A DNA stretch of 45,482 nt from an uncultured Eubacteriales bacterium (GCA_934726435.1 CAKVDR010000001.1:1-45482); one strand, 5' to 3'. Positions 44,229-44,741 are shown, counted from the first letter of the stretch. Translations and numbers: made by a program. The notes: a model not told the origin generated them from the sequence alone.

Positions 44229-44485
44229 TATCTAAAAAAGGATCTAAAATTTCGGTTAAGCATACAGTGAGCAAGCCGTATCCTTATAATAAACTTCGCA
44301 GGACATCTGAAATGAATGCTCACTATGGTATTGGAATTTCGGATGCTATTAGAAAAAGCTCGAAGTCTGTTCCTTTGAAATTTGAAGATGACGTTTTCAA
44401 AAATTTGAAAGAGGAAGAAGCTAGGCCAGTTGATATGTTTTTGCTTATGTTTGATTTGAACTATTACGAAAAATTAATGATATAA
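44141..44485 (+). CDS. Small secreted protein (114 aa) within repeat module 1
   Basis: GGAGGA RBS. The signal peptide is MKIVKKIFVLSTSAILGLSFCTGTAFA-S. Its mature part is unrelated to that of the copy-2 gene. Confidence 0.65.
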   Translation: MKIVKKIFVLSTSAILGLSFCTGTAFASGISKKGSKISVKHTVSKPYPYNKLRRTSEMNAHYGIGISDAIRKSSKSVPLKFEDDVFKNLKEEEARPVDMFLLMFDLNYYEKLMI

Positions 44486-44509
44486 AAAATGCTCCGAGAA
44501 AATCGGAGC
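44482..44509 (-). terminator. Bidirectional hairpin, a strong intrinsic terminator for the minus-strand 5S rRNA gene
   Basis: GCTCCGA, GAAAA, TCGGAGC occupy 44491-44509. On the minus strand ATTTTTTAT follows. On the plus strand the hairpin also ends the 44141 gene. An identical copy lies at 45414-45432. Confidence 0.75.
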
Positions 44510-44590
44510 AATAAATTTATGAATTCACACGGTAATGAGATCGTGTGGATAACTTTTTATTTTAATAAACTAAAAAAAGGCATAAAAAAA

Positions 44591-44706
44591 GTTGGCATTT
44601 TCCTATCTTCCCAGGCCGCTTCCAGCCAAGTATTTTCGGCATCATCCAGCTTAACTACCGTGTTCGAGATGGGAACGGGTGTACCCTGGATATCATCAAC
44701 ACCAAC
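44591..44706 (-). rRNA. rrf: 5S ribosomal RNA, stand-alone (no adjacent 23S or 16S)
   Basis: The reverse complement reads GTTGGTGTTGATGATATCCAGGGTACACCCGTTCCCATCTCGAACACGGTAGTTAAGCTGGATGATGCCGAAAATACTTGGCTGGAAGCGGCCTGGGAAGATAGGAAAATGCCAAC. It contains the universal CACCCGTTCCCAT..CGAACACGG.AGTTAAGC core. The termini pair as helix I (GTTGGT with GCCAAC). Confidence 0.85.
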
Positions 44707-44712
44707 ATCTAT

Positions 44713-44741
44713 ACTATACCACGCCTGTTTTATATTGTCAA
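44713..44741 (-). promoter_or_regulatory. Consensus sigma-A promoter driving the 5S rRNA gene
   Basis: On the minus strand: TTGACA (44741-44736), a 17-nt spacer ending in TGG, then TATAGT (44718-44713). The -10 element lies 6 nt before the mature 5S 5' end. Confidence 0.75.

Follow-up and report, generated by a model that had tools for sequence, protein, structure and literature searches.

In Bacillus subtilis, 5S rRNA is cut from a long operon transcript by RNase M5, which acts at a duplex formed by leader and trailer. Firmicute rRNA promoters, as represented by the rrn operons of this bacterium, are strong SigA promoters that initiate with G, have an A+T-rich tract upstream and sense GTP. 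The 5S genes of archaea (Sulfolobus) and those transcribed by eukaryotic RNA polymerase III yield a primary transcript that runs from the mature 5' end to a T-run, where it stops. In bacteria, extra or orphan 5S genes are a well-known phenomenon. Francisella carries an orphan 5S gene apart from any 16S-23S pair (PMC3479022, PMC2737636), and according to rrnDB 23.6% of bacterial genomes contain unequal numbers of rRNA genes, mainly through additional 5S copies (PMC2686494). In Leptospira, Thermoplasma and Nanoarchaeum the rRNA genes are fully unlinked and have a promoter each (PMC2686494); RNase M5 is mentioned in PMC6582327. Some recent surveys of unlinked rRNA genes focus on the separation of 16S and 23S and leave the 5S untreated.

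We analysed a DNA stretch of 45,482 nt from an uncultured Eubacteriales bacterium (GCA_934726435.1, CAKVDR010000001.1:1-45482), referred to here as the window, which harbours a 5S rRNA gene on its minus strand. Our main reading, to which we assign a probability of roughly 0.85, is that this is a functional housekeeping 5S gene, organized as a self-contained mini transcription unit and the first of two tandem units. The two 5S units sit between an island of secreted-protein genes and dut-mreBCD. The features on which the argument draws are listed by position, where A1 denotes an alignment of nine copies from the genus.

44141..44485, plus strand: gene convergent with the 5S, encoding a 114-aa protein with a signal peptide and no Pfam family; belongs to the duplicated unit
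44484..44510, minus strand: hairpin B and T-run, intrinsic terminator of the 5S transcript (TGCTCCGATTTTCTCGGAGCA then TTTTTTAT)
44523..44550, no strand assigned: hairpin A, in the trailer; a T-run follows on the plus strand
44544..44552, minus strand: perfect DnaA box TTATCCACA within hairpin A; second copy at 45468-45476, minus strand
44570..44589, minus strand: trailer TTTTTT-ATGCC-TTTTTTT-AG, immediately 3' of helix I, from A1
44590..44706, minus strand: 5S rRNA gene, 117 nt, RF00001, copy 1 of the tandem pair
44706, minus strand: predicted transcription start, coinciding with the mature 5' G of the 5S, 7th nucleotide past the -10 and thus at the standard distance
44713..44741, minus strand: sigma-70/SigA-type promoter, with -35 TTGACA at 44741-44736, a 17-nt spacer, TG at 44721-44720 and -10 TATAGT at 44718-44713
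44742..44790, minus strand: A+T-rich tract 5' of the -35 (AAAAAATTTTTTAAAAAAATTTGAAAAAAACAC), possible UP element, read from the sequence
44914..45482, plus strand: start of repeat unit 2, with upstream region and signal peptide, a 99-aa gene at 45098-45397 and a terminator block at 45406-45482

A cmscan run over the whole window returned the 5S_rRNA family RF00001 as its sole match, with 83.3 bits against the curated Rfam gathering score of 38 bits (E=2.1e-16), and the alignment spans model positions 1-120 of 120 without truncation. An earlier sequence-only reading of this DNA had described a 116-nt 5S gene on the minus strand with a preserved loop C/helix III core, and had suggested RF00001 scoring as a check, a sub-threshold score being taken as the mark of a pseudogene. 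Gene and strand are borne out, the length is corrected to 117 nt, the core is indeed kept, and the score lies well above the cut-off. Folding of 57 distinct 5S sequences with the same loop E (RNAalifold) yields the canonical three-way junction with 32 pairs, 17 of which show compensatory changes in this alignment, and the 5S of the window forms all 32. Helix II may serve as an example, with CCAG/CUGG in the window versus UGAG/CUCA in relatives. The junction of helices I-V is supported by covariation, all helices are intact, and both loop C (CCCAUCUCGAACACGG) and loop E carry the motifs that identify a 5S rRNA. At one position of loop C (CAUCUCGAAC) every copy of the genus has U except L010, which carries C like most relatives, the compared relatives having nearly always C, and this counts against the main reading.

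The nearest genomes are those of UMGS1703 and UMGS1750, metagenome-assembled genomes (MAGs) of uncultured "Ruminococcaceae"; the SerRS of UMGS1703 shares 96.7% amino-acid identity with that of the window. The 5S orthologues in the two genomes are 98-99% identical to the window copy (1-2 substitutions per 117 nt), as against only ~76% identity between the window and UMGS1703 in the 1.3 kb around the gene. Three versions of the 5S occur within the species of the window, namely the window copy, copy 2 with A25C and L010 with U40C. Judged by its sequence, the gene is an intact, real 5S rRNA gene of ordinary housekeeping character, and neither a variant nor a pseudogene flag is warranted in its annotation.

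The promoter hexamers match the consensus at 11 of 12 positions and are complemented by the TG extension, the 17-nt spacer ending in TGG; exactly 6 nt (ATAGAT) lie between the -10 and G44706, the first 5S nucleotide. Sites of the form TTGACA-N14-TGNTATAAT with at most one mismatch occur four times in the window, compared with 0.05 expected, and the other three also precede genes, dnaA among them; the polymerase of this organism therefore evidently uses the consensus. In eight copies of A1 from related species the hexamers, the TG and the ATAGAT gap are invariant or nearly so, while the spacer varies, and hexamers as well as terminator are kept in both copies across the three related species compared. 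The unit accordingly has -35 and -10 hexamers within the 16-18 nt spacing of a SigA promoter, conserved in relatives, and the distance from the -10 to the 5S is identical in all genus copies. Transcription would hence be predicted to start at G44706, so that the RNA would bear its triphosphate on the mature 5' end. The A+T-rich tract at 44742..44790 is possibly a UP element, in an island that has ~30% G+C throughout.

Downstream of helix I, the trailer at 44570..44589 has a single variable position across all nine sequences of A1 and is a possible site of early termination or 3' processing. In other AT-rich uncultured Clostridia (L018, L019, L024, L026, L033, L057 and others) 6-8 T follow directly on the last 5S nucleotide, also in 23S-linked copies, and helix I plus the U-run may act as a terminator in several AT-rich lineages. 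Hairpin B, which is kept in all A1 copies and has the form of an intrinsic terminator, lies 79 nt past the 3' end of the 5S and comprises an 8-bp stem with 5 G-C pairs and a 5-nt loop, followed by TTTTTTAT. The 114-nt trailer region folds with a z-score of -3.98 relative to shuffled sequence; the predicted 231-nt transcript, folded as a whole, gave an uninformative alternative fold of low ensemble frequency. Hairpin A reads on the plus strand as the terminator of gene 44141-44485, and its stem is preserved in relatives through changes on both sides. The DnaA box TTATCCACA within it is invariant in every species and copy of A1, while the rest of the hairpin varies; the window contains three perfect DnaA boxes in total.

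By its layout, the transcription unit is self-contained. The window of 45.5 kb is devoid of 16S, 23S and tRNA genes (Rfam scan; ARAGORN for tRNA), and in a further relative (L136, a 487-kb contig with two 5S genes) neither 16S nor 23S was found within 10 kb on either side of the 5S pair. Upstream of the 5S lies its own promoter and then a protein gene on the opposite strand; a 23S gene within ~1 kb upstream on the same strand, as in an rrn operon, is missing. The architecture outlined by the sequence-only reading is reproduced by these results: a TTGACA-17-TGgTATAGT promoter 6 nt before the 5' end of the gene, a GC hairpin with a T-run ~80 nt downstream, convergence with the gene starting at 44141 (which runs toward the 5S), the lack of 16S and 23S within reach, an autonomous unit (promoter and terminator being conserved) and a setting among secreted-protein genes were all recovered.

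This layout extends beyond the genus. Among the fetched loci whose sequence reaches 700 nt or more upstream of the 5S, 33 copies stand alone, i.e., without 16S or 23S, versus eight linked to 16S or 23S; 12 of the 33 represent the genus's own locus, the window included. In nearly all stand-alone copies the promoter agrees with the consensus at 10-12 of the 12 hexamer positions and frequently has a TG extension, and a terminator of hairpin and T-run lies downstream; the promoter-like matches of linked copies are only weak. The distance between the -10 and the 5S in stand-alone copies is usually 26-38 nt, in some loci 14-15 nt, and 6 nt in the genus and in L058, which places the window at the short-leader extreme of a common design. 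The stand-alone layout is a lineage trait of the Oscillospirales part of the Clostridia, not a peculiarity of the window copy.

Further arrangements were observed in the wider clade. Acutalibacteraceae and related MAGs (L014, L055, L067, L080, L092, L094, L106, L121) share a conserved leader of ~35 nt, located ~40 nt upstream, which forms a small hairpin (AAACGCCGTTGCGTTT) between the consensus promoter and the stand-alone 5S and may be a processing or regulatory element. Tandem stand-alone 5S genes also occur in the Acutalibacteraceae MAGs L053 (174-413) and L050 (7621-7991); the copies of L053 are 6 nt apart and apparently have one promoter and one terminator in common. In Oribacterium parvum and O. 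asaccharolyticum (L097 3202-8000, L090, L038, L113) the order is 16S-5S-(tRNA)-23S, so that the 5S separates the two large rRNA genes rather than following the 23S.

The window ends within a duplication, which the sequence-only reading had not described. The terminator block at 44482-44558 (77 nt) recurs with 100% identity at 45406-45482, where the window ends, and a block of 295 nt at 43957-44251, comprising the promoter/upstream region and the signal peptide, recurs with 86% identity at 44914-45208, which makes the 5S of the window the first copy of a tandem pair. Two human-gut metagenome contigs (L001, L002) that encode exactly the 99-aa protein of 45098-45397 continue beyond the window into a second 5S, which would begin ~30-32 nt after the last base of the window. 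The repeated segment, a 5S with its terminator, measures 241 nt at 99.6% identity and is the likely reason why the contig stops at this point.

The gene order is shared by UMGS1703 (L134), UMGS1750 (L117, L135) and L136: mnmE, mnmG, rsmG, serS, several small secreted-protein genes and a 5S, followed by one small gene, the other 5S, dut, mreB, mreC, pbp2, mgsA and hisS. A mobile-element or prophage origin was ruled out, the locus being syntenic from serS to dut-mreBCD in all genus assemblies examined. In other Oscillospirales the stand-alone 5S genes are not adjacent to dut, mreB or serS. The number of units varies among strains or species: the window, L134, L135 and L136 have two, and L133 and L010 are one-unit variants with a small gene and a 5S next to dut, as unequal recombination between the repeats would produce. 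Within A1, little or no variation is seen in the 5S, the T-rich trailer and hairpin B; the differences lie in the promoter spacer and far upstream. The upstream regions cluster by position across species (inner with inner, dut-side with dut-side), and the 5S and trailer show species-specific substitutions common to both copies of a genome. This pattern indicates that the duplication predates these species and that gene conversion has since homogenised the copies, as it usually does with rRNA genes.

The origin region of the chromosome lies within the window (20273-38151). The genes dnaA (28851-30167), dnaN, gyrB and gyrA are on the minus strand, rnpA, yidC, mnmE, mnmG, rsmG and serS on the plus strand, and the cumulative GC skew turns near 28 kb. 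Several one-mismatch DnaA boxes are found at 28451-28737 and at 30406. The 5S genes are located ~14-15 kb from dnaA, a high-dosage position typical of rRNA genes, and they lie on the lagging strand, head-on to replication, as the only minus-strand features from 30.6 kb to the window end. Heavily transcribed rRNA genes are not usually oriented in this way, which counts against the main reading, yet for a gene of 117 nt the orientation may be of little consequence.

The adjoining low-G+C island (~30%; 39270-45397) contains at least nine small signal-peptide genes, and its content varies among related species. Several paralogues have the N-terminus MKK.KLNAV.ASILSLG..CSGS.FAS in common, and a Pfam search with ten of the neighbouring small secreted proteins returned no family. 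One paralogue (43423-43917, plus strand) has an in-frame TGA at 43483-43485, precisely at the codon that in its relatives encodes the conserved signal-peptide Cys; what remains is a 129-aa ORF that lacks a signal peptide, and the paralogue is probably a pseudogene. Another gene for a secreted protein (39854-40792, plus strand) harbours ~19-29 tandem 12-nt units at 40249-40596, which encode a KDKP/KDEL/KDKS-type repeat, and its flanking domains are duplicated (39965-40093 versus 40514-40642, 77%).

Taken together, these features suggest the following mode of expression for a housekeeping 5S gene in its own mini transcription unit. SigA-RNA polymerase would start at the near-consensus extended -10 promoter, and as the predicted start G is the mature 5' end, neither a 5' leader nor 5' processing would be needed. 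Since a leader is predicted to be absent, the leader-trailer duplex cut by RNase M5 in B. subtilis would not form. Transcription would terminate at the U-run right after helix I or at the hairpin and U-run 79 nt further on, any trailer would then be trimmed from the 3' end, and the RNA would join the 50S subunit as any 5S does. Gene conversion would keep the two units alike, with unequal recombination yielding the one- and two-unit variants.

A challenge to the reading as an ordinary gene came from loop E. The letters of this loop (GCCGAAAAUACU ... GGGAAGAUAGG) are as the sequence-only reading had given them; they are unlike the Bacillus and E. coli type, and that reading took them as a possible sign of a divergent 5S variant. 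Such a variant might, e.g., be specialised for heterogeneous ribosomes. The single-nucleotide differences among copies (A25C in copy 2, U40C in L010) point in the same direction. Yet a search for CCGAAAATACT-N12-16-GGGAAGATAGG in one genome per GTDB species retrieved the GAAAATA/GAAGATAG form in at least 120 genome stretches of other species. Among the matches listed, almost all belong to the Clostridia, chiefly Oscillospiraceae, Ruminococcaceae and Acutalibacteraceae, besides a few Patescibacteria, and the cultured isolates among them include Gemmiger sp. An87, Yanshouia hominis, Ruminococcus sp. YE282 and Oribacterium parvum. The same loop E is present in many copies just or directly downstream of a 23S gene (Ruminococcus sp. 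YE282; L078, with the order 23S-tRNA-tRNA-5S; L054, L088, L015), and in one Acutalibacteraceae MAG the 23S-linked copy (L054, 23S-tRNA-5S) matches a stand-alone copy (L094) at 117 of 117 positions. In Gemmiger sp. An87 (L032 4075-4315), adjacent copies carry GAAAAUA/GAAGAUA and the mirror form GAAGAUA/GAAAAUA, respectively; the swapped central pair is numbered 75/101 in E. coli, where it is G.A. Such a symmetric change from A.G to G.A is as would be expected of a working, constrained non-Watson-Crick loop E, the argument from isostericity having this Gemmiger swap as its one basis. Clade-wide occurrence, operon linkage and the An87 swap make the A-rich loop E a lineage trait, not a property of the locus. 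The differences among copies are single polymorphisms in loops, and gene conversion homogenises the copies rather than keeping them distinct; the specialised variant was hence rejected as a very improbable explanation. The same holds for a decaying pseudogene or relic of a broken rrn operon. Isolation from 16S and 23S, the variable low-G+C island, the head-on orientation and the adjoining paralogue with its premature stop codon are what such a relic might exhibit, but they are set against 83.3 bits over the full model, intact helices, 98-99% conservation amid surroundings of ~76%, a conserved consensus promoter and terminator, and a duplication maintained in four assemblies. Score, structure and conservation together practically exclude a pseudogene. 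The sequence-only reading had itself named identity to operon-encoded copies as the sign of an ordinary dispersed copy and a weak RF00001 score as that of a pseudogene; by these standards the results point to an ordinary dispersed copy, neither pseudogene nor special variant.

How the housekeeping gene relates to the rest of the rRNA complement is a matter of closer balance. The genome may also contain ordinary 16S-23S-5S operons, with the two stand-alone genes as supplementary "orphan" copies that top up the 5S supply, a reading whose chances we put slightly below even. The Acutalibacteraceae MAG mentioned above, with a 23S-linked and a stand-alone 5S of identical sequence, is a precedent, and most of the bacterial genomes in which rRNA gene counts are unequal (23.6%) owe this to extra 5S genes (PMC2686494). 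Furthermore, short-read MAGs often lose their rrn operons, so that a missing linked copy is weak evidence. Conversely, a 23S-linked copy of the genus's 5S is absent among the GTDB species-genome matches listed (at least 120), and a genus-specific pattern retrieved three stretches from JGI metagenomes, all of them stand-alone. A spurious ORF antisense to the 5S was queried against a collection of 5.8 billion proteins, and all 12 of its close clusters extend into the promoter context. The junctions of 23S and 5S are readily found on MAG contigs of other clades. A bolder proposal, which we regard as rather doubtful but worth stating, is that the genus, and perhaps much of the Oscillospirales, makes its 5S only from stand-alone mini-genes, which in the genus would be leaderless. 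If so, the primary transcript would extend from the mature 5' nucleotide to a point at or near the mature 3' end, the 5S supply would be uncoupled from 16S-23S transcription, and 5' processing of the RNase M5 type would be unnecessary. The result would be a counterpart in bacteria to the 5S layout of archaea and eukaryotes, with the genes arranged head-on beside oriC in this case, and each with a conserved DnaA box.

Moderately new, in our view, are the frequency of promoter-to-terminator 5S units in the Oscillospirales, the predicted leaderless start in the genus and the head-on, origin-proximal tandem pair. Stand-alone units of this kind look common in a major group of the human and animal gut. 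If the 5S is routinely uncoupled there, three questions arise: what keeps its stoichiometry in step with 16S and 23S, how its ends mature when there is no operon precursor, and how counts of rRNA genes in MAGs are to be interpreted. These questions are modest and testable.

Compared with the orphan 5S genes described so far, the locus is alike in that the 5S lies away from any 16S-23S pair. It differs in being tandem-duplicated, syntenic in every genus assembly examined and part of a clade-wide habit (33 stand-alone versus eight linked copies), and window-type units may be the only 5S source of the cell. With the fully unlinked rRNA genes it has in common a 5S on its own promoter, uncoupled from 16S and 23S (PMC2686494, PMC7761764). 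Unlike Leptospira, Thermoplasma or Nanoarchaeum, the organism is a human-gut Firmicute and neither a spirochaete nor an archaeon. The strong SigA promoter, the predicted initiating G and the A+T-rich upstream tract would be analogous to those of the B. subtilis rrn promoters, whereas the B. subtilis pre-5S has a double-stranded RNase M5 substrate that would be absent here, as no leader is predicted. The resemblance to the 5S genes of Sulfolobus and RNA polymerase III consists of a predicted start at the mature 5' nucleotide and a T-run directly after helix I; the promoter is bacterial (-35/extended -10), and the likeness would be one of layout only.
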